A DNA stretch of 64,000 bases from Gammaproteobacteria bacterium. GTDB taxonomy: Bacteria; Pseudomonadota; Gammaproteobacteria; Eutrophobiales; Eutrophobiaceae. The translations under genes and the position numbers were made by a program. Of this stretch, positions 4,461 through 63,693 are shown piece by piece; position 1 is the stretch's first letter, and each line of letters starts with the position of its first letter. The DNA is taken from positions 2,176,001 through 2,240,000 of the forward strand of contig OZ244905.1 of NCBI GenBank assembly GCA_965221695.1, in the 5' to 3' direction. The notes under the pieces are model-generated. The model made no database searches and had not been told where the DNA came from. It saw only the letters and a program-made list of their open reading frames with translations.

Positions 4461-5105
4461 GTGAGTAACGGGAAACCCATCGGTTTGATTGGCGGCGCAT
4501 TTGATCCGGTACATATCGCCCATATCGGCATCGCTCTGGAATGCGTGGCAGCGTTGAACCTCGAAAGGGTCGACTTTATCCCGACCAACATCCCTCCGCA
4601 TAAGGCCGAAACCCGCGCCGCGCCGCGCCATCGGTTGGCCATGTTGCGGCGCGCGTTGAGACCCTATCCGCAACTGTCAGTCAATGACCTGGAACTGAAG
4701 CGGGGCGGCATATCGTACACGATCGATACCTTGATCGCGCTACGTGCAGATGAACCGCAACGCGCGTTCTGCTTTATTCTGGGCGCAGACGCATTTGCGT
4801 CGCTGCCAACCTGGCGCCGCTGGCAGGAACTGACGGATTACGCGCACCTGGTAATTGTCAGCCGAAAGCGCCGGGGCGGGACGAATTGGGCGCCGGAACT
4901 GCAAGAGCGATACGCCGCGCGCGCCTGCGCCTCGGCGCTGGAGTTGCACACGCGCCCCAATGGCTGTATCCACAAAGCGGCGGTCTCCGTCCCGGATGTT
5001 TCATCCTCCCAGGCGCGCGCCTTGTTGAACGGAGAGCAGGACACGGAAAACATACTGCCCCCCGGTGTTCGGGACTACATCAGAGAGAACAACTTGTACT
5101 CATGA
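4461..5105 (+). CDS. nadD: Nicotinate-nucleotide adenylyltransferase
   Basis: GGAFDPVHIAH (HxGH-like), SYTIDTL, FILGADAF; proA-nadD-rsfS synteny. Confidence 0.95.
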   Translation: MSNGKPIGLIGGAFDPVHIAHIGIALECVAALNLERVDFIPTNIPPHKAETRAAPRHRLAMLRRALRPYPQLSVNDLELKRGGISYTIDTLIALRADEPQRAFCFILGADAFASLPTWRRWQELTDYAHLVIVSRKRRGGTNWAPELQERYAARACASALELHTRPNGCIHKAAVSVPDVSSSQARALLNGEQDTENILPPGVRDYIRENNLYS

Positions 5106-5437
5106 ACAATATTGCCCGTTTGATCATTGATACGATGGAAAGCCTGAAAGCCCAGGATGTACAAACACTGGATGTGCGCGCCTTCACCACCATGACTGAC
5201 TACATGATCATCGCCAGCGGGCAGTCCGACCGCCAGGTCAAGGCGATAGCCGACAAGGTTATCGAGGCGGCGAGAATCAAAAAGATAAAGCCACTAGGAG
5301 TAGAAGGACAACAGCAGGCGGAATGGATCCTGATTGATTTTGGCGATGTGATTGCCCATGTCATGCGCCCCGATACCAGGGAATATTATCAACTCGAAAA
5401 ACTTTGGTCCATGGCGCAACGCGCCGGCAACGGCTGA
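5102..5437 (+). CDS. rsfS: Ribosome silencing factor
   Basis: TDYMIIASG..RQVKAIAD, WILIDFGDVIAHVM, REYYQLEKLW; ATG overlaps the nadD stop (ATGA). Confidence 0.95.
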   Translation: MNNIARLIIDTMESLKAQDVQTLDVRAFTTMTDYMIIASGQSDRQVKAIADKVIEAARIKKIKPLGVEGQQQAEWILIDFGDVIAHVMRPDTREYYQLEKLWSMAQRAGNG

Positions 5438-11861: not shown

Positions 11862-11934
11862 GGGTCGTTAGCTCAGTCGGTAGAGCAGCTGACTTTTAAT
11901 CAGTTGGTCGCAGGTTCGATTCCTGCACGACCCA
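11862..11934 (+). tRNA. tRNA-Lys(UUU); CCA not genome-encoded
   Basis: GGGTCGT/ACGACCC acceptor, anticodon loop CTTTTAA, T-loop TTCGATT; followed by A-TCT rather than A-CCA. Confidence 0.97.
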
Positions 11935-16641: not shown

Positions 16642-18417
16642 ATGCGCAGCCATTATTGCGGACAACTGACGGCAGCCATGATCGGTGAGGAGGTTGCGCT
16701 ATGCGGCTGGGTACACCGGCGGCGGGATCATGGCGGGGTAATTTTTATCGACTTGCGCGACCGGGAAGGACTGGCCCAGGTGGTCTATGATCCCGACCGC
16801 GCAGAATCCTTTGCCGTGGCCGAATCGCTCAGAAATGAGTACGTGGTGCGCGTGACCGGACGGGTGCGCCGGCGCCCGGAGGGCACGCTCAACCCGAATA
16901 TGCCGACCGGCGAGGTGGAAGTGCTGGGGCACACGCTGGAACTGTTGAACAAGGCCAGGACCCCGCCGTTCCAGTTGGACGATGAGAACGTGCAGGATGA
17001 TATACGCCTGCGTTACCGCTACGTGGACTTGCGCCGTGAGACCATGCAGGAAAATATCAAGTTACGCAGCCGGGTCACCCGCGCCATCCGCGCGTACCTT
17101 GACGAGCGCGGTTTTCTTGATATTGAAACCCCGGCGCTGACCCGGGCAACCCCGGAAGGCGCACGCGATTACCTGGTACCGAGCCGGACCCAGCGCGGCG
17201 GCTTCTTCGCGCTGCCGCAATCGCCGCAGTTGTTCAAGCAGCTACTGATGATGTCCGGTATGGATCGTTACTACCAGATCGTCCGCTGCTTCCGCGACGA
17301 AGACCTGCGCGCGGACCGGCAACCGGAATTTACCCAGCTCGATATGGAAATGTCGTTTGTTGATGAGGCCGACATCACCGCACTGGTGGAGGGCATGATC
17401 CGCGACCTGTTCAGGCAGGTGAGGGGTATTGAACTGGCGGACCCGTTCCCGCGCATGACGTACCATACAGCGATGCAACGCTACGGCACGGACCGTCCGG
17501 ACCTGCGCAACCCACTGGAACTGGTCGAGGTCGGCGACCTGATGCAACAAGTGGAATTCAAGGTGTTTTCCGGCCCGGCAAACCAGGCAAACGGCCGTGT
17601 GGCCGCGCTGCGCCTGCCCGGCGGAAATAGCCTCACGCGCAAGGAGATCGACGATTATACCGCGTATGTGGCGAAGTTCGGCGCTCGGGGACTTGCGTAT
17701 ATCAAGGTCAATGACCTGGACAAGGGCAAAGACGGGCTGCAGTCACCCATCCTGAAATTCCTGCCCGGGGAAACGGTCCAGGCCGTATTGCAGCGTACCG
17801 GGGCGCAGACCGGGGACCTCGTGTTCTTCGGCGCCGACAAGGCCCGCATCGTCAACGACTCGCTCGGCGCGCTGCGTACAGCGCTGGGTGAGGACCTGAA
17901 GTTGCTGCAGGGAGACTGGGCGCCACTCTGGGTCGTCGATTTTCCCTTATTCGAATATAACGACGCGGAACAGCGCTGGGATTCCCTGCACCACCCGTTT
18001 ACCGCACCGCAGGCGCAAGAGCCGGATGGCGACCTGCATCAGGGCTTGTCGCGCGCCTACGACCTGGTACTTAACGGTATGGAGCTGGGCGGCGGTTCGA
18101 TCCGTATCCATGAGCCGAAAATGCAACTGAAGGCGCTGCAACTGCTGGGCATTGATGAGGAGCAGGCGCGGGAGAAGTTCGGTTTCCTGATTGATGCCCT
18201 GTCATATGGCTGCCCGCCCCACGGCGGCATCGCGCTGGGCCTGGATCGTATCGTCATGATCATGGCCGGCGCCAAAGGGATCCGGGATGTGATCGCGTTT
18301 CCCAAGACCCAGACCGCCAGTTGCCTGCTCACGGACGCCCCCGCTGCTGCTTCGCCGGAACAGTTGCGTGAACTGGGGATAAGACTGGTCTATAATTCCA
18401 AACAAGCATCTGACTAA
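16642..18417 (+). CDS. aspS: Aspartyl-tRNA synthetase, probably non-discriminating (Asp/Asn)
   Basis: [38 protein letters not shown]; RRDHGG (His) and RPEG (Gly) signatures of ND-AspRS. Confidence 0.98.
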
Positions 18418-23958: not shown

Positions 23959-25083
23959 ATGAGCAGGGAACATCACATGCCGCCGGCTGGAGGCAGAGGT
24001 TCCGAAGAAATGCACAGTGTTGTAACCCCCCCGGATTTTCGGCTGCCGCCGGAACAGGTTCCCGAGACGGTTGTCGAACACCTCGCGAATGAGGAGCGGG
24101 ACGCGTGTATGCGTCAGATCAAGCGGCTGCTGCGGGAACAGAATGCCGTATTGGTCGCGCATTACTACACTGACCCGGATCTGCAACGGCTCGCGGATGA
24201 AACCGGCGGCCATGTATCCGATTCCCTGGATATGGCGCGCTTTGGCCACGAATCCGACGCGACCACGCTGGTCGTCTGCGGCGTGCGTTTCATGGGCGAG
24301 ACGGCAAAGATACTGAACCCGGAAAAACGGGTGCTGATGCCGGAACTGCAAGCTGATTGCTCCTTGGACCTGGGTTGCCCCGGTGACGCGTTCAACGCCT
24401 TTTGCGACAGCTATCCGGACCGTACCGTCGTGGTCTATGCCAATACCAGCGCCGCAGTGAAAGCGCGCGCCGACTGGATGGTCACGTCTGGCAGCGCGGT
24501 GGAAGTGGTCAGACACCTGGCGGAACAAGGAGAAAAAATCATCTGGGCGCCGGATAAGTACCTGGGCGAATATGTGCGTGAGCAATCCGGCGCGGACATG
24601 ATGTTATGGCAAGGTAGTTGCATCGTCCACGAGGAGTTCAAGGGCAGGGAGCTGGGAGAACTGAGACAAAAACACCCCGCCGCCAAGGTATTGGCGCACC
24701 CGGAATCACCGGCCCCGGTCATTGCCCAGGCCGACGTGGTCAGTTCCACCACGGGCATCATCAAGGCGGCGACCGAACTGGCGTCCGATACGTTCATTGT
24801 CGCAACCGATAAGGGCATCTTCTACAAGATGCAACAGGCCGCGCCGGACAAGACCTTTATCGAAGCGCCCACAGCCGGCCGGGGAGCCACCTGCAAAAGT
24901 TGCGGCCACTGCCCGTGGATGGCGATGAACAGCCTGACAAAGCTGCTGGAAACACTCCGTTCGGGCGCCAACGAGGTATTTGTCGAAAAGGAGATCATCG
25001 AACGCGCCCGCATACCGATAGAGCGGCTGCTGAACTTTGCCGCGCAACGCAAACAGGTCATCTACGGCAACAGCGACGCCTGA
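23959..25083 (+). CDS. nadA: Quinolinate synthase A
   Basis: [59 protein letters not shown]. Confidence 0.97.
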
Positions 25084-25125
25084 CCCAAGCGTCATAATCG
25101 CACCGCCCAGATTTTTTCCGTTTTT

Positions 25126-25141
25126 TGTGAGTTTTATCACA
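25126..25141. promoter_or_regulatory. Perfect CRP/FNR-superfamily box TGTGA-N6-TCACA
   Basis: TTTTTGTGA GTTTTA TCACAAAAA; centre 25133.5 is -61.5 from a putative TSS at A25195. Confidence 0.7.
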
Positions 25142-25159
25142 AAAACGCGAAAGTTTTCT

Positions 25160-25188
25160 TTGCCGAACAGAACATCTTTTCTCAGAAT
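25160..25188 (+). promoter_or_regulatory. Putative weak sigma70 promoter for the tRNA-like pair (sense strand)
   Basis: TTGCCG (25160-65), 17-bp spacer, CAGAAT (25183-88). Confidence 0.5.
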
Positions 25189-25196
25189 GGGCTGAT

Positions 25197-25227
25197 AAAA
25201 AACCCGTCCCCCTAAGGAGACGGGTTT
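25197..25227 (-). terminator. Intrinsic terminator of antisense unit 1 (possibly weakly bidirectional)
   Basis: CCCGTC/GACGGG GC stem followed by T6 on the minus strand; TTTATTCT on the plus strand. Confidence 0.8.
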
Positions 25228-25232
25228 ATTCT

Positions 25233-25335
25233 GCCCAGGTGGTGAAATCGGCAAACACAGGGGACTGCCACTCCCCCGGCCTCTGTAGCGAAACCTACAT
25301 GCCTTACGGGTTCGAGCCCCGTCCTGGGCACACCA
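25233..25335 (+). tRNA. Non-canonical tRNA: tRNA-Leu-type body, anticodon GCC (Gly), 29-nt variable region, ACACCA 3' end
   Basis: Acceptor GCCCAGG/CCTGGGC; D-arm GTG..CAC with GG; anticodon stem GGGGA/TCCCC, loop CT-GCC-AC; T-arm ACGGG-TTCGAGC-CCCGT. Confidence 0.8.
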
Positions 25336-25350
25336 TAGGCGCCAACAGCC

Positions 25351-25379
25351 ATTATCGTGGCCGGCGCAGGACTTGTCAA
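25351..25379 (-). promoter_or_regulatory. Sigma70 promoter, antisense to tRNA-like unit 1
   Basis: Minus strand reads TTGACA AGTCCTGCGCCGGCCAC GATAAT (17-bp spacer). Confidence 0.8.
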
Positions 25380-25385
25380 TATGAT

Positions 25386-25417
25386 AAAAAAACCCGTCCC
25401 CCGAAAGGGACGGGTTT
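25386..25417 (-). terminator. Intrinsic terminator of antisense unit 2
   Basis: CCCGTCCC/GGGACGGG stem followed by T7 on the minus strand. Confidence 0.82.
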
Positions 25418-25422
25418 ATTCT

Positions 25423-25525
25423 GCCCAGGTGGTGAAAACGGTAAACACAGGGGACTGTCACTCCCCCGGCCTCTGTAGTCAGACCTACATGCCTTACGGG
25501 TTCGAGCCCCGTCCTGGGCACACCA
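25423..25525 (+). tRNA. Non-canonical tRNA: tRNA-Leu-type body, anticodon GUC (Asp), 29-nt variable region, ACACCA 3' end
   Basis: Same stems as copy 1; anticodon loop CT-GTC-AC (25455-25461). Confidence 0.8.
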
Positions 25526-25540
25526 TAGGCGCCAACAGCC

Positions 25541-25569
25541 ATTATCGTAGCCGTACAGGGGGCTGTCAA
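25541..25569 (-). promoter_or_regulatory. Sigma70 promoter, antisense to tRNA-like unit 2
   Basis: Minus strand reads TTGACA GCCCCCTGTACGGCTAC GATAAT (17-bp spacer). Confidence 0.8.
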
Positions 25570-25679
25570 CAACATTTCGCGTACAGAAATCCGCGCGCAA
25601 TATATCAAGATATGCGTCTGCCCTGACTTGAATTATAAAACCATAAATGGGAACATTCCGTTAAAACCCGGAAAGAGAT

Positions 25680-26426
25680 ATGGCAGGACACAGCAAGTGG
25701 GCGAACATCCAGCATCGCAAGGGCCGACAGGACGCCAAGCGAGGTAAATTATTCAGCAGGTTGATCCGCGAGGTCACGGTATCCGCCCGGCTCGGCGGCC
25801 CCGACCCGGACGGTAACCCGAGGTTGCGCGCGGCCATCGACAATGCGCTGGCCGGCAACATGCCCAAGGACACCATCGAACGGGCTGTGAAGCGCGGCGC
25901 GGGCGGCGCGGAAGGCGAAAGCCTGGAAGAAGTGCGCTACGAAGGATACGGACCGGGCGGGGTCGCGGTAATGGTTGATTGCATGACTGACAACCGTAAC
26001 CGCACTGTCGCTGAGGTGCGGCACGCCTTCTCCAAATGTGGCGGCAATCTTGGCACTGACGGTTCCGTCGCATACCTGTTTTCCAAGGTTGGGCAGCTTT
26101 CCTACCCGTCTGGCACCGATGATGACGCCTTGTTGGAGGCTGCGTTGGAAGCGGGCGCGGAGGATATTGCAAACAATGATGACGGAACCGTTGACGTCTT
26201 GACCACACCGGAAGACTTTCTCGACGTCAGGGACAGCTTGGTTGAGACAGGTTTCCCGCCCGATGCCGCAGAGGTAACGATGCGCGCGGCAACCGGGCAG
26301 ACGCTGGACTTGCGTGGCGCGCAGACCATGACGTTGCTACTGGACACGCTGGAAGACCTGAACGATGTGCAGAAAGTGTATTCCAACGCGGATATTCCCG
26401 ATGAAATCCTGGCCCAGCTTGATTGA
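25680..26426 (+). CDS. yebC: YebC/PmpR family protein
   Basis: [33 protein letters not shown]. Confidence 0.98.
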
Positions 26427-60062: not shown

Positions 60063-61445
60063 ATGGACCCGAGATTTCTACCCCATAACACCCACCTGGA
60101 AAACCCTGCCGGGTTTACTGAACAGGACCCTCAACTGCGCCTGCTAAGCCGTCAAACATATCAATATCGTTCAGATGTGTTAGATGATTTAGTTGTTGCA
60201 AAGCCGGGTATTTACACTCTGGGAGGAGGGCGGCAAATCGGCAAATCGACCTTGTTGAAACAGTGGATAAGTGAATTGCTGGCACAGGGTGTCGCACCCG
60301 TATCGATCAGTTTTTTTACAGGCGAACTTATCGATGACCACCATAGCCTCCTGAGGTTGATGCAGGCTCAACTGGGCGATTCGCATACGGATTCCATCAA
60401 CTACCTGATTATAGACGAAGTAACCTATATTCAGCAGTGGGATAAAGCAGTTAAATTCGCCGCAGACGCGGGCATGCTGGAGCGTACCGTCCTGGCGCTG
60501 ACCGGTTCGGACCTGGGTTTAATCAGGGATGCGCGCATGCGCTTTCCCGGACGGCGCGGCGGGGCTGAGGTGGTTGATTTCCACATGTATCCGCTTTCAT
60601 TCAGGGAATGCCTGAAGCTGAAAAACCCGGACATCAATATCGATGATATCGTCTGCCGACCCGGGCAGCCTGAAGCAGACATTCTCGATACAATTTATGG
60701 GGAATTCGATCAGTACTTGATGCATGGCGGTTATTTGACAGCAATAAATGACCTGGCCGGGACCGGGCAGATAAATCAAACCACCTTGAATACGTACTCC
60801 GACTGGATAAGAGGCGATGTGCTGAAACGCGGCAAGCACGAAAATTACCTGCGTGAAATCATGACTGCTATTATCAAACGCTACAATTCACAGGTCACAT
60901 GGAACGCCCTGGCTCGTGACCTGTCCATTGATCATCCCAAAACGGTGGCTGATTATATTGATGTGCTGGTGAATATGGACGCGGTCTTTGTACAGTCCGC
61001 CCTGCTGGAAGACAAACTGGTTGCCGCGCCCAAGAAAGCCAGAAAACTGATGTTCTGCGACCCCTTTATATTCCATGCCGTGCACGGCTGGGTGAATCCG
61101 TCCGGTGATCCTTACCATTCGCAGATCCTGCCGCTAGTTCGTGATCCGGAATGGGCCTCCCGCCTGGTTGAGGCTGCCGTGGTCACTCATCACCGCCGTT
61201 TTTTCCCCACATATTACATCAAGGCCCGGGGTGAAGTGGATCTTGCCTATGTCAATAACGGGCAATGCTATCCTGTTGAGATTAAATGGACCAACCAGTT
61301 ACGACCCAAGGACATCAAACAGGTCAACCAATATCCACGGGGTGAAATCTGGACTAAAACCAGATCCTGGGGCGACATAAACTCGACTAAAACCTATCCA
61401 TTACCGCTGAAATTGCTTCAGATAAACAGGGTCGGACCTGCTTAA
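60063..61445 (+). CDS. AAA_14 ATPase with DUF4143 domain
   Basis: Walker A GGRQIGKS, Walker B IIDEV, LTGS, KL.F.DP, C-terminal EVDL...PVEIKW. Confidence 0.88.
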   Translation: MDPRFLPHNTHLENPAGFTEQDPQLRLLSRQTYQYRSDVLDDLVVAKPGIYTLGGGRQIGKSTLLKQWISELLAQGVAPVSISFFTGELIDDHHSLLRLMQAQLGDSHTDSINYLIIDEVTYIQQWDKAVKFAADAGMLERTVLALTGSDLGLIRDARMRFPGRRGGAEVVDFHMYPLSFRECLKLKNPDINIDDIVCRPGQPEADILDTIYGEFDQYLMHGGYLTAINDLAGTGQINQTTLNTYSDWIRGDVLKRGKHENYLREIMTAIIKRYNSQVTWNALARDLSIDHPKTVADYIDVLVNMDAVFVQSALLEDKLVAAPKKARKLMFCDPFIFHAVHGWVNPSGDPYHSQILPLVRDPEWASRLVEAAVVTHHRRFFPTYYIKARGEVDLAYVNNGQCYPVEIKWTNQLRPKDIKQVNQYPRGEIWTKTRSWGDINSTKTYPLPLKLLQINRVGPA

Positions 61446-61625
61446 CCCTACCTATCTCTTTGTTTCCATTGAGTTGATTTGTTGCAGGGGTCTGCTTTGC
61501 TCCCTTAAACCCCATTTTTTGTCGTCGAAACCGAGGTTTTAAGATTCTTTTCCCTATACAGCTTACTCCATTAACCCAGAGACAATGGAAACACATAGTT
61601 AGGCAGGTCCGGCCCTATTTCTCTG
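61424..61625. mobile_element. ~200-bp MITE-like element with terminal inverted repeats
   Basis: Left AAACAGGGTCGGACCTGCTTAAC..TGTTTCCATTG; right CAATGGAAACA..GTTAGGCAGGTCCGGCCCTATTT. Confidence 0.75.
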
Positions 61626-61681
61626 CATGAAAAAACGCTGTAGTCCCTCCTTAAGGAGATGAGAGTTTACGTCATAAAGAA

Positions 61682-62374
61682 CTACGTGCCGTTGCGTTGG
61701 AACCTCCCGTGTCGGAGGTAATGGATGACCTGGGCAATTACTGCGTTGTTTCTCATAATGAAGGGGTGGGTGGCAGGTATTTGAATGTGGTCCCGCATCC
61801 CTGTCAGTTTCGTATGCTCGACGGAGACCTTGCCGTCATCAGCGCCGGGTATCAGCATGGATAATAGCAGGTTGATGCTGCGGGTGCCGGCTATTATGCC
61901 CAAGTCGAAATCGGCTGGACCAAGACGGATGGGGACGCTTGCGCTATCCGTGCCGAGTTGCAGACCCGCAGCGCCGTTGATCAGGCGGAAACCGGGGACG
62001 TTTCCCAATTTATCCACCACTTCGCTGCCCTGATTAGGCGGCGCCAGCATCACGACCCGTTGCAGGCCAGGAATGTCATTATCCTCAAGATAGTGCCGGA
62101 GCAGGATGCCGCCCATGGAATGGGTGACAAAATGAATATTCTCTCCGTCACATTTCTCCAGCGCCGGCTCAATGGCGAGACCCGCCAACTTTTCTATCGG
62201 GAATTGTCTTGAGGGATAACCCTGGTTGATGGGTGTAAAACCCTGTTCCTCAAGTTCACGCGCCAGCTTGTTCATGGAGCGCTCGGTCCTGGCCAGACCA
62301 TGCAGCAGGATGACACATGAGGAAGTGGCCTCCAATGAGAACAGAACCAGCAATATGAACGTGACTGTTTTCAA
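61682..62374 (-). CDS. Exported alpha/beta hydrolase (lipase/esterase-like)
   Basis: VILLHGL, THSMGG nucleophile elbow, PPNQGS, DDGKV, H.FIM. Confidence 0.88.
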   Translation of the reverse strand: MKTVTFILLVLFSLEATSSCVILLHGLARTERSMNKLARELEEQGFTPINQGYPSRQFPIEKLAGLAIEPALEKCDGENIHFVTHSMGGILLRHYLEDNDIPGLQRVVMLAPPNQGSEVVDKLGNVPGFRLINGAAGLQLGTDSASVPIRLGPADFDLGIIAGTRSINLLLSMLIPGADDGKVSVEHTKLTGMRDHIQIPATHPFIMRNNAVIAQVIHYLRHGRFQRNGT

Positions 62375-62514
62375 AGCACAGAGCCCGACGCGTAAAAGTA
62401 CATGATTATCTGGGTGAGATCATACTTTTGTTTCTGGCCCCTGTCACGTCGTTGACTTGCGTCTCACTACTTCTATATTTTACTTTTTTACCACCTCGGT
62501 ATAAAATGGTAAAT

Positions 62515-63693
62515 ATGAAAATTAAACGTACTGTTTTCAAAGGGTTAAATGATCACTTAACCAGGCCGGAAGTCCTGATTCTGCTCGGCGCCAGGCAGGT
62601 TGGGAAAACCACCCTGATGAATGATCTGGCAACGACTGCAGCGGAGAAGTTTCAGCATATCCGGTTTTTCAATGCTGAGTTCCCTGATGACCTGCTGTTT
62701 TTCTCCAGGCCGGAACGGGAATTATTTTATGATCTGACGAAAACACCCGATACGATCATTTTTATCGATGAGTTTCACTATATCAAAAACATCTCGAAAA
62801 TCTTCAAGGGCATATACGACGCTCAAAAGAGAATTAAAATTGTGGCCAGCGGGTCGTCATCACTGGAAATTCATAAGCACCTCCGGGAGAGTCTGGCCGG
62901 AAGAAGGAGTATATTCAAAGTTTACCCATTATCTTGGGAGGAATGGAGGCAGACCGGCGGTTCAATTGAAGAGTTTACCGTATTTGGCGGCATGCCCGGG
63001 CTTGTTCACCTTGCAAGCAAAACTGAGAAAATGGAATATCTCTCACAAATCGTTCAAGCATATATTCTCAATGATATCAAGGGCTTGCTCAGGGAAGAGA
63101 ACATTGCGGCATTTAATCACCTGCTGTATTATCTGGCAGAAAACCAGGGACAGATCACCCCCACCGCCAATCTTGCAAGAGAGATCAGGTTATCAAATAT
63201 GACGGTGGTGAATTACCTTGATATCCTTGAACAAACCTATGTTGTGTTTGGGCTTCACAGTTTTTCCAGAAGGCTGTCCAACGAATTAAAGAAATCAAGA
63301 AAATATTATTTTTTTGATAATGGCATCAGGAATGCCATCATCAAAAATTTTGCCGCGCCCCAAGAAAGAAGCAATACTGGTTTTCTGTATGAATCCCATG
63401 TTTTCCTTGAACTTCATAAAAGATTGCGCGCCAACACAGAATTACAGTTTTGGCGCAACAGGCAAGGCGATGAGGTTGATTTCATCTGGTCTGAAAATCA
63501 GGTTCCTGTCCCCATTGAAGTTAAACAGAGTTGGTCAGGACGAAACCTACCGCAAGGCCTGCGTAAGTTCCTGAAAAACTACCCTGAAGCCCCATGTGGA
63601 ATATTGGTCAATGCGGACACAAGCGCGGAGCGGCAATTAAATGGGCGAACGATCAAATTGAAGAAATTTGATGAAGCAATCTTGTGTACATAG
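62515..63693 (+). CDS. AAA_14 ATPase with DUF4143 domain (second paralog)
   Basis: GARQVGKTT, FIDEF, ASGSS, ESLAGR, KYYFFDNGIRN, EVDF...PIEVK; visibly AT-richer than core genes. Confidence 0.9.
   Translation: MKIKRTVFKGLNDHLTRPEVLILLGARQVGKTTLMNDLATTAAEKFQHIRFFNAEFPDDLLFFSRPERELFYDLTKTPDTIIFIDEFHYIKNISKIFKGIYDAQKRIKIVASGSSSLEIHKHLRESLAGRRSIFKVYPLSWEEWRQTGGSIEEFTVFGGMPGLVHLASKTEKMEYLSQIVQAYILNDIKGLLREENIAAFNHLLYYLAENQGQITPTANLAREIRLSNMTVVNYLDILEQTYVVFGLHSFSRRLSNELKKSRKYYFFDNGIRNAIIKNFAAPQERSNTGFLYESHVFLELHKRLRANTELQFWRNRQGDEVDFIWSENQVPVPIEVKQSWSGRNLPQGLRKFLKNYPEAPCGILVNADTSAERQLNGRTIKLKKFDEAILCT

Follow-up and report, generated by a model that had tools for sequence, protein, structure and literature searches.

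A conserved CRP-type palindrome upstream of leucine-type tRNAs with glycine and aspartate anticodons and convergent antisense promoters

The stretch of DNA analyzed here, called the window throughout, comprises 64,000 nucleotides (nt) of a Gammaproteobacteria bacterium of the family Eutrophobiaceae (assembly GCA_965221695.1, contig OZ244905.1, positions 2,176,001 to 2,240,000), and our subject is a palindromic box of the CRP type that sits in the 596-bp gap between nadA and yebC. The flanking genes are all on the plus strand. Also within this gap are two tandem 190-nt units with 90% identity, each consisting of a GC-rich hairpin, a tRNA-Leu-type cloverleaf with a 27-nt variable arm, and a convergent promoter, TTGACA-17-GATAAT. 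The tRNA-like genes are referred to below as odd tRNAs. The features, in order of position, are as follows:

23959..25083, plus strand: nadA (quinolinate synthase; NCBIfam TIGR00550, 361.5 bits), the upstream neighbor, whose stop lies 43 nt before the box.
25121..25146, no strand: extended palindrome with the CRP-type core at 25126-25141, centered on 25133.5; the offset is fixed in relatives.
25160-25165, plus strand: TTGCCG, the -35-like hexamer of a putative sense promoter; TTGnnG is co-located in relatives, and the consensus scan makes no call here.
25183-25188, plus strand: CAGAAT, the -10-like hexamer of the same promoter, with a predicted transcription start site (TSS) near 25195; the hexamers of relatives lie within 1 nt.
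25197..25230, minus strand: hairpin 1, the terminator of antisense RNA 1 and also the 5' leader of the sense RNA (inverted repeat, covariation, strand asymmetry, scan call).
25233..25330, plus strand: odd tRNA 1 (RF00005, 52.1 bits; anticodon GCC at 25267-25269; variable-arm loop at 25289-25294; tail A-CA-CCA).
25351..25379, minus strand: antisense promoter 1, TTGACA-17-GATAAT (11/12 consensus; predicted TSS ~25344).
25196..25344, minus strand: predicted antisense RNA 1, ~150 nt, with its ends taken from the called promoter and terminator.
25387..25420, minus strand: hairpin 2, the terminator of antisense RNA 2 (inverted repeat; a 12-pair stem and then a minus-strand T run).
25423..25520, plus strand: odd tRNA 2 (RF00005, 53.3 bits; anticodon GTC at 25457-25459; variable-arm loop at 25479-25484).
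25541..25569, minus strand: antisense promoter 2, TTGACA-17-GATAAT (11/12; predicted TSS ~25534, RNA to ~25386).
25680..26426, plus strand: yebC, followed by ruvC, ruvA, and ruvB, the downstream neighbors (NCBIfam).

Odd tRNA 2 has the same body as odd tRNA 1 and is without a box or a sense promoter of its own. The box, TGTGAGTTTTATCACA at 25126-25141 (TGTGA-GTTTTA-TCACA), agrees with the inverted repeat TGTGA-N6-TCACA at 10 of 10 core positions and is nested in the palindrome arms TTTTTGTGA and TCACAAAAA (25122-25145), which a repeat search stretches to 16 nt at 81% complementarity (25115-25130 and 25137-25152). The perfect motif occurs once in the window, with a chance expectation of 0.04 copies, and at least one copy was present in 4 of 100 shuffles. 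An initial annotation had placed the box at these coordinates within a longer palindrome and had proposed that a CRP/FNR-family activator there turns on the tRNAs; direct inspection of the sequence bears the placement out. On the evidence of the window alone, a palindrome like the box is mildly unlikely, and the hexamer pair that follows it is not significant as a promoter. The weight given to the box comes from its relatives in five other genomes, which repeat it at a fixed offset with invariant half-sites and a better -10 element.

Relatives were sought in a genome collection by an exact pattern (an anticodon arm with a free anticodon, a gap of 24 to 42 nt, and a T loop). The pattern fixed the anticodon stem, so that more distant relatives are missed. 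It returned 20 loci, designated by L numbers, of which L017 and L018 overlap. Nearly all of them are in metagenome-assembled genomes (MAGs) labeled Gammaproteobacteria or Pseudomonadales, with one Xanthobacteraceae and one "Candidatus Azophilus," and several apparently come from marine invertebrate metagenomes, going by isolate names. A profile built from the pattern hits gave 35 units in 18 loci and the window, which were grouped as follows:

G1: the window, L010, L015, L017, L019, and L020 (18 units).
G2: L002, L004, L005, L007, L011, L012, L013, and L016.
G3: L001, L003, L006, L008, and L014.
Outlier: L009.

The closest relative, L010, is from a sister species with the same nadA-units-yebC synteny, 80 to 96% identity, and three units against the two of the window. 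With a relaxed form of the box pattern, 15 matches were found in the loci and the stretch of the window that were scanned, all of them in G1 sources. Thirteen lie 62 to 67 nt before the normalized unit start (window unit 1, L010 unit 1, L015, eight in L017, and both in L019), one precedes the L020 unit, which an insertion of ~150 nt splits, and the last (L017:827) is a solo box separated from any unit by another repeat. The box is therefore found at 14 of the 15 G1 units once tandem followers are set aside. None of the three followers (window unit 2 and L010 units 2 and 3) has one, as expected for one operator per array. If the box serves the unit, its spacing should be conserved in homologous loci; the distance of 62 to 67 nt is kept in 13 of the 15 nonfollower units. 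The insertion in L020 (~4780-5080 in unit orientation) interrupts the D loop of its unit.

In 14 aligned upstream regions, TGTGA and CACA are invariant, and the right half-site opens with T in 12 regions and with C in the other 2. Among five lineage representatives, the invariant columns number 5/5 in the left half-site, 4/5 in the right half-site, 3/6 in the N6 spacer, 3/25 upstream of the box, and 3/30 from the box to the -10 element. The invariance of the half-sites, their fixed spacing, and the lack of compensatory change would be the mark of a site for a dimeric protein, and they argue against an RNA stem. The palindrome might otherwise be an RNA hairpin, either the 3' end or a stabilizer of the upstream mRNA or part of a transcript, since it folds at -13.4 kcal/mol (z = -3.4), and the stem in L010 is longer by one G-C pair where the window has G.A. 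However, the half-sites show invariance and no covariation, L015 and L019_a have a T-to-C change that costs the stem a pair and is uncompensated on the plus strand, the stem is AU rich with no U tract directly after it, and the upstream gene varies among loci. We regard the hairpin as the least credible of the explanations considered, with hardly any weight.

The hexamers of the putative sense promoter, TTGCCG and CAGAAT, are separated by 17 nt, with A at 25195, and the geometry given by the initial annotation is correct in every coordinate. The box center at -61.5 that it claimed holds if the -10 hexamer is taken as -12 to -7 (25133.5 versus A25195). The CRP site of lac, centered at -61.5, occupies the class I activation position; class I sites may also be centered near -71.5, -82.5, or -92.5. 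A TTGnnG element follows the box by 18 to 19 nt in all aligned lineages except L020. The distance from the box center to the first base of the -10 element is 49.5 nt in the window and 48.5 nt in L015, L017, and L019, so that this offset is constant within 1 nt in four of the five lineages. With the same convention for the -10 element, the implied position relative to the predicted TSS is -61.5 in the window and -60.5 in those three relatives. The counterparts of CAGAAT are TAAAAT in L017 (within TATATAAAAT), TAAAGT in L015, TAACAT in L019, and TAAGGT in L020.

A consensus promoter scan of 24800-25900 called no sense promoter on the plus strand, and none was called in the scans of L015, L017, and L019. 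The same scans of the window and these three loci all call the antisense promoter, at 10 to 11 of 12 consensus positions. The combination of an absent sense call and a called antisense promoter fits a sense promoter that depends upon an activator. It also agrees with the contrast drawn in the initial annotation between a weak sense promoter and constitutive antisense RNAs; the antisense promoters are near consensus and conserved. No minus-strand gene lies to the left of the box in the window, nadA being on the plus strand, and the sense element is thus the only promoter-like element that the box can serve. On balance, and with modest confidence, we favor the reading in which the box is a CRP/Vfr-type operator that would activate a weak sense promoter and so lift the odd-tRNA precursor above neutralization by antisense RNA and convergent transcription. 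A dimeric regulator of the CRP/FNR family, of the CRP or Vfr type, would bind the palindrome ~61 bp upstream of the start, in class I geometry, and the sigma-70 sense promoter would then yield a precursor composed of the leader hairpin, odd tRNA 1, the second hairpin, and odd tRNA 2.

Several observations weigh against this reading. By manual count, the sense promoter of the window agrees with the consensus at 8 of 12 positions, and by itself it is no better than chance. The sister species L010 has CACACT at the -10 place, which is poorer still than CAGAAT, and the sense promoter may be decaying in the lineage of the window and L010. The L020 box lies 10 nt nearer to its -10-like element than those of the other lineages. 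Eight of the 14 boxes are from one genome (L017) and are not independent, for which reason the comparison was reduced to the five lineage representatives; these five are all of the independent lineages with a box. One L017 unit (L017:8943) has a different repeat in place of the box and keeps the rest of the unit. The relaxed pattern has no match in the G2, G3, or L009 loci, and the operator is not a defining part of the tRNA/antisense family. Sites with up to two mismatches number 13 in the window against 20 expected, and this lack of enrichment gives no sign of a regulon. The bases beside the core are T rich on the left and A rich on the right, the opposite of the consensus flanks of CRP sites in Escherichia coli. 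The N6 spacer takes six forms across the 14 regions with its three central T residues invariant, and CRP recognition alone does not account for this central TTT. Finally, no CRP-family protein was found among the 55 window open reading frames (ORFs) scanned or among 73 flanking ORFs of 15 loci.

Some of these observations could be accounted for if the box belonged to another regulator or had a negative role, as a repressor site, a roadblock to read-through from nadA, or a nucleoid-protein site. The flanks and the unchanging central TTT, which are unlike the E. coli sites, the absence of a crp gene among the same 55 and 73 ORFs, and the 10-nt shift in L020 would all be compatible with a different protein, and the position of the box 43 nt after the nadA stop would suit a roadblock. 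The match at 10 of 10 core positions and the offset to the -10 element, held within 1 nt in four of five lineages, speak for a CRP-type activator, and the upstream neighbor is not nadA outside the window and L010, so that a nadA roadblock is not a general role. Overall, we consider another regulator or a negative role unlikely, if worth keeping in view.

The products of the proposed precursor have the features of tRNAs. Both window sequences match RF00005 on the plus strand, with scores of 52.1 and 53.3 bits (gathering score, 29). In an alignment of 32 units to a structure of 40 pairs (hairpin plus cloverleaf), 93.2% of the paired cells are paired and 17 of the 40 pairs have changed on both sides, which none of 500 shuffles equaled; slid controls reached 33 to 47%. 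The covariation is found in the acceptor, D, variable, and T helices and in helix 1 of the hairpin, and the anticodon stem, whose invariance is imposed by the search pattern, carries no weight as evidence. In the tRNA stems, 9 cells are G.U and 2 are A.C, which favors the plus strand. In its acceptor stem, D and T arms, and A73, the body aligns almost base for base with annotated phage tRNA-Leu(UAA) genes; it departs from them in the anticodon loop and in the variable arm, which is 13 to 17 nt longer. A canonical tRNA-Leu isoacceptor was considered and rejected: the class II body is of the leucine type, but the anticodons are GCC and GTC and the variable arm is longer.

Across the 32 aligned units, the anticodon is GCC in 10, GTC in 8, GGC in 6, CGC in 5, GGA in 2, and TGG in 1, and G1 has GCC and GTC alone. 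U33 is kept in 31 of 32 units (it is lost in L019_a), and position 37 is always A. The end reads A73-CCA in L017, in G2 (7 of 9 units), and in G3; extra bases stand before CCA in the window and L010 (two) and in L015 and L019 (one). The tRNA-Lys(UUU) gene of the window (11862-11934) does not encode the 3' CCA, so the host must add CCA; the odd tRNAs of the window differ from it in having CCA two bases past the discriminator. Bacterial leucyl-tRNA synthetase (LeuRS) does not read the anticodon, and for this reason leucine charging is the likeliest outcome; a tRNA so charged would misread Gly and Asp codons. A leucyl-tRNA synthetase gene (1-1590, cut by the window edge) and an aspartyl-tRNA synthetase gene (16642-18417) are in the same window as the Leu-bodied tRNA with an Asp anticodon, probably by coincidence.

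We also considered whether the units are decaying tRNA-Leu pseudogenes or repeats resembling short interspersed nuclear elements or miniature inverted-repeat transposable elements (MITEs), functionless and with the box riding along. Their multiple, mobile-looking copies, the split unit of L020, the loss of U33 in L019_a, and the two extra bases before CCA in the window tail could be read in this way. Yet every helix is maintained by compensatory changes in three clades, the promoter hexamers persist between spacers that diverge, and the half-sites stay invariant within flanks that have diverged, which leaves the idea of functionless repeats highly improbable.

ARAGORN is unsuited to this family: it finds neither the window units nor any G1 unit, and among the 19 loci it calls two units overall, as tRNA-Ala(cgc) in L003 and tRNA-Pro(tgg) in L009. 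The latter, in the Xanthobacteraceae MAG (4973-5116, minus strand), is an alphaproteobacterial tRNA of the tRNA-Leu type with a UGG (Pro) anticodon and a long variable arm; its tail is A-CA-CCA, as in the window, and its flanks differ. A similarity search with 25100-25400 gave two 52-nt matches among plasmids, both in chromosome-sized Proteus records and without annotated features, and no unit; among phages it gave 13 records, in which the 10 annotated matches are all tRNA-Leu, and again no unit. In E. coli genomes there was no match for the tRNA alone and no unit. Other Rfam matches at E of ≤10 are weak, at 14 to 24 bits against gathering scores of 35 to 68 (ncr1175, Betaproteobacteria toxic sRNA, anti-hemB, and others), and were rejected as terminator look-alikes.

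The hairpin before each tRNA appears to belong to the opposite strand. It is followed on the minus strand by a run of 6 to 7 T, and among its paired cells 35 are C.A or A.C, which would be G.U pairs in a minus-strand RNA, compared with 5 that are G.U on the plus strand; this excess indicates that the hairpin is the terminator of the antisense RNA. The minus-strand terminator call covers the full 12-pair stem at unit 2 and only the 5-pair inner stem at unit 1, and a GC-rich hairpin of 11 to 12 pairs with a U run, as expected of an intrinsic terminator, is called on the minus strand at window unit 2, L015, L017, L019, and L001. The initial annotation had suggested that the hairpin attenuates sense read-through. 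Its position before each tRNA is as described, but it is built as an antisense terminator, and because the T tract after it on the plus strand is interrupted (TTTATTCT) and poorly conserved, attenuation of the sense transcript is secondary, if it occurs at all. Between window units 1 and 2, the hexamers of the antisense promoter are kept and the 17-nt spacer between them has diverged. The predicted antisense RNA 1 would be the full complement of the leader, tRNA 1, and the first 14 nt of the trailer. The sense RNA folds into the leader hairpin and cloverleaf (-55.1 kcal/mol, z = -3.4), and the antisense RNA folds into a mirror cloverleaf and the 12-pair terminator (-69.9 kcal/mol, z = -3.1). 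We also rejected a small minus-strand protein, since its 46-amino-acid ORF starts inside the -10 hexamer and loop indels of 1 to 2 nt break the frame.

In the proposed mechanism, each unit's near-consensus convergent promoter would produce an antisense RNA of ~150 nt that is complementary to the precursor and ends at the hairpin upstream of the tRNA. The sense output, tRNAs derived from tRNA-Leu whose variable arm is very long and whose anticodons are those for Gly (GCC) or Asp (GUC), would stay low, buffered by this RNA and by convergent transcription, unless the activator were bound, and expression would be conditional and thresholded. The roles could also be reversed: the effector would be the antisense RNA, the tRNA-like sense RNA would do no more than titrate it, and CRP-driven sense transcription would switch the antisense RNA off; one possibility is that the antisense loop, complementary to the Gly/Asp anticodon loop, binds genuine tRNAs or other targets. 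In favor of this, no signals in G1 are stronger than the antisense promoter and terminator, and a minus-strand terminator is called in G3 as well. The hairpin is optimized for the minus strand, and the loops are the variable parts. Set against this are the tRNA features of the plus strand (D-loop GG, the T loop, U33 in 31 of 32 units, a purine at 37, A73, and a nearby CCA) and the 9 G.U versus 2 A.C cells of the tRNA stems, features that would be needless in a mere complement. We therefore look upon an antisense effector as rather doubtful.

The most divergent region between otherwise near-identical copies is the loop of the variable arm. Its mean pairwise difference is 0.44 among the nine L017 copies, 0.55 among the five copies of the window and L010, 0.66 in G2, and 0.59 in G3, and its length is 6, 7, or 8 nt. 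The anticodon loop ranks second (0.14 to 0.21), the stems differ by 0.00 to 0.06 in the two G1 sets and by up to 0.12 in G2 and G3, and the unstructured 3' tail differs by 0.02 among the window and L010 copies. Given these three loop lengths, the open minus-strand frame cannot be read as a protein. A mutation in the loop alters the sense and antisense RNAs together, and the pattern thus fits loop-loop recognition that would keep paralogous pairs specific and insulated from each other. One variable-arm loop sequence is found with different anticodons in window unit 2 and L010 unit 1, which suggests that there may have been exchange between units.

The neighborhoods of the three groups have no protein gene in common, so the unit looks autonomous. 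In G1, the units are either flanked by nadA and yebC or placed shortly after RTX-repeat genes of the opposite strand, and the RTX-side sites of L015, L017, L019, and L020 are probably orthologous. In G2 they lie between greA and rlmE, in islands that also carry genes for type ISP restriction enzymes, DUF4143 ATPases, and VapC/RelE-like toxins. The flanks of L004, L007, L012, and L013 carry type ISP restriction-modification, DUF4143 AAA ATPase, and PIN (VapC-like) or RelE-like genes; the window also contains two DUF4143 ATPase genes, at 60063-63693. Four G3 loci (L001, L003, L006, and L014) have units directly after the stop of a same-strand gene for a ComEA-like helix-hairpin-helix protein. 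The G3 hairpin is without a plus-strand T run, and sense transcription there may come from read-through of this gene; no CRP-type site was found upstream of comEA in the G3 loci.

The scan called the antisense promoter in G1 alone and a minus-oriented terminator in G3 (L001). In G2 (L013) it called neither promoter nor terminator, and a conserved TTGACC-17-CATGGT is visible by eye. The G2 units are also preceded, at ~60 to 140 nt, by a conserved block of ~80 nt in which the scan called nothing and no convincing sigma-54 or sigma-70 promoter or palindrome was seen by eye. This block may be the counterpart of the G1 regulatory region.

The densest locus is L017 (contig OZ252091.1), whose 10 kb contain nine units and, between them, at least two families of MITE-like short repeats; it also carries a pair of Gp49/HigB-like toxin and helix-turn-helix (HigA-like) antitoxin genes and fragments of RTX-repeat genes. 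Such multiplication of units would be explained if the palindrome served for recombination or mobility, for instance as a tyrosine-recombinase core whose two arms enclose a 6-bp center. In addition to the nine copies here and the two or three tandem copies in the window and L010, the L017 box lies ~20 nt inside the left edge of the repeat, and other MITE-like repeats crowd the region. However, the right edge of the unit has no counterpart of the box, the tandem copies of the window and L010 were duplicated without the box, and no recombinase is present among the flanking ORFs scanned. A recombination site therefore seems very unlikely.

Returning to the operator reading, we can extend it to an autonomous module consisting of RNA and a single operator. 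A leucine-charged missense tRNA for abundant Gly (GGY) or Asp (GAY) codons, silenced by an abundant antisense RNA of its own, would be freed by a cAMP-CRP-type signal or by loss of the antisense RNA, with proteome-wide missense incorporation and growth arrest or stress diversification as the predicted outcome and with the loops of the variable arm and anticodon providing kissing-loop specificity. This extended scheme is tentative, and we give it a limited chance of being right as a whole, although an RNA-only toxin-antitoxin function of the kind predicted is a plausible hypothesis. If it is true, the system would be a toxin-antitoxin pair or stress switch with a tRNA as the toxin. If the reading holds, bacteria deliberately carry misdecoding tRNAs under two layers of control, an operator and a dedicated antisense RNA, which would be a natural, regulated route to mistranslation and perhaps a new class of RNA-only addiction or stress module. 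The unit family is widespread in uncultured Gammaproteobacteria, and the conserved box makes the timing of odd-tRNA production testable. For annotation, a tRNA-like match should not be taken for an ordinary tRNA or a pseudogene when its variable arm is very long and a consensus promoter opposes it.

Among known systems, the class I CRP promoters of the lac type are alike in the perfect core, the center at about -61 from the predicted start, and a weak putative core promoter, and unlike in that the predicted product here is a tRNA-like RNA rather than an mRNA and the flanks differ from the E. coli consensus. Systems with RNA antitoxins are alike in that a strong cis-antisense RNA faces a potentially harmful sense product; these include type I and type VIII, the latter being an RNA-RNA toxin-antitoxin in which a toxic RNA is neutralized by a complementary RNA. 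The paralogous units also stand beside toxin-antitoxin genes, HigB/HigA-like in L017 and VapC/RelE-like in G2. A type I system was rejected, as the unit has no credible ORF for a toxin peptide (the 46-amino-acid frame starts in the -10 hexamer and is broken by loop indels). Full complementarity of the predicted sense and antisense RNAs, as would be expected of a type VIII-like pair, follows from the gene layout.

A sense promoter facing a cis-antisense small RNA is described for mtlA and MtlS of Vibrio cholerae, where the sense gene is CRP influenced and transcription of one partner affects the other (PMC6597380). There the sense gene encodes a transporter, whereas at the nadA-yebC locus both partners are noncoding and the sense RNA is a tRNA. 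Allo-tRNAs are bacterial tRNAs that have long variable arms and anticodons that do not fit the body and often lie near toxin-antitoxin genes or transposable elements (Mukai et al. 2017; PMC5389517). When induced in E. coli, they caused missense incorporation, and two of those tested, with anticodons reading CUC and UUA, arrested growth; the authors also consider regulatory noncoding roles (PMC5389517). Allo-tRNAs have 8/4 or 9/3 acceptor/T-stem pairs and serine identity as there described, unlike the present units with 7/5 pairs, a tRNA-Leu-type body, and A73. An allo-tRNA identity was rejected, as both the 7 acceptor pairs and the 5 T pairs are supported by covariation. The main text of that paper does not mention antisense, tRNALeu, or LeuRS, and "promoter" in it refers to the arabinose (araBAD) expression promoter (PMC5389517). 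The nematode nev-tRNAs are class II tRNAs with neither Leu nor Ser anticodons, including Gly, and are reported to be charged with leucine in vitro (PMC3333845, PMC4300185); they differ from the units in being eukaryotic and nematode specific and in having no known antisense partner or operator.

In the literature searched, mostly without subscription journals and supplements, we found no bacterial tRNA-Leu-type tRNA with a Gly or Asp anticodon that is paired with an antisense RNA or a CRP site. The operator itself is an element of an ordinary kind. The comparison suggests that the module as a whole, with odd tRNAs, their own antisense RNA, and a conserved CRP-type box, is a conditionally switched RNA-only kind not yet described, and it could be categorically new should the tRNA prove to be the toxic member of a pair made of RNA alone.

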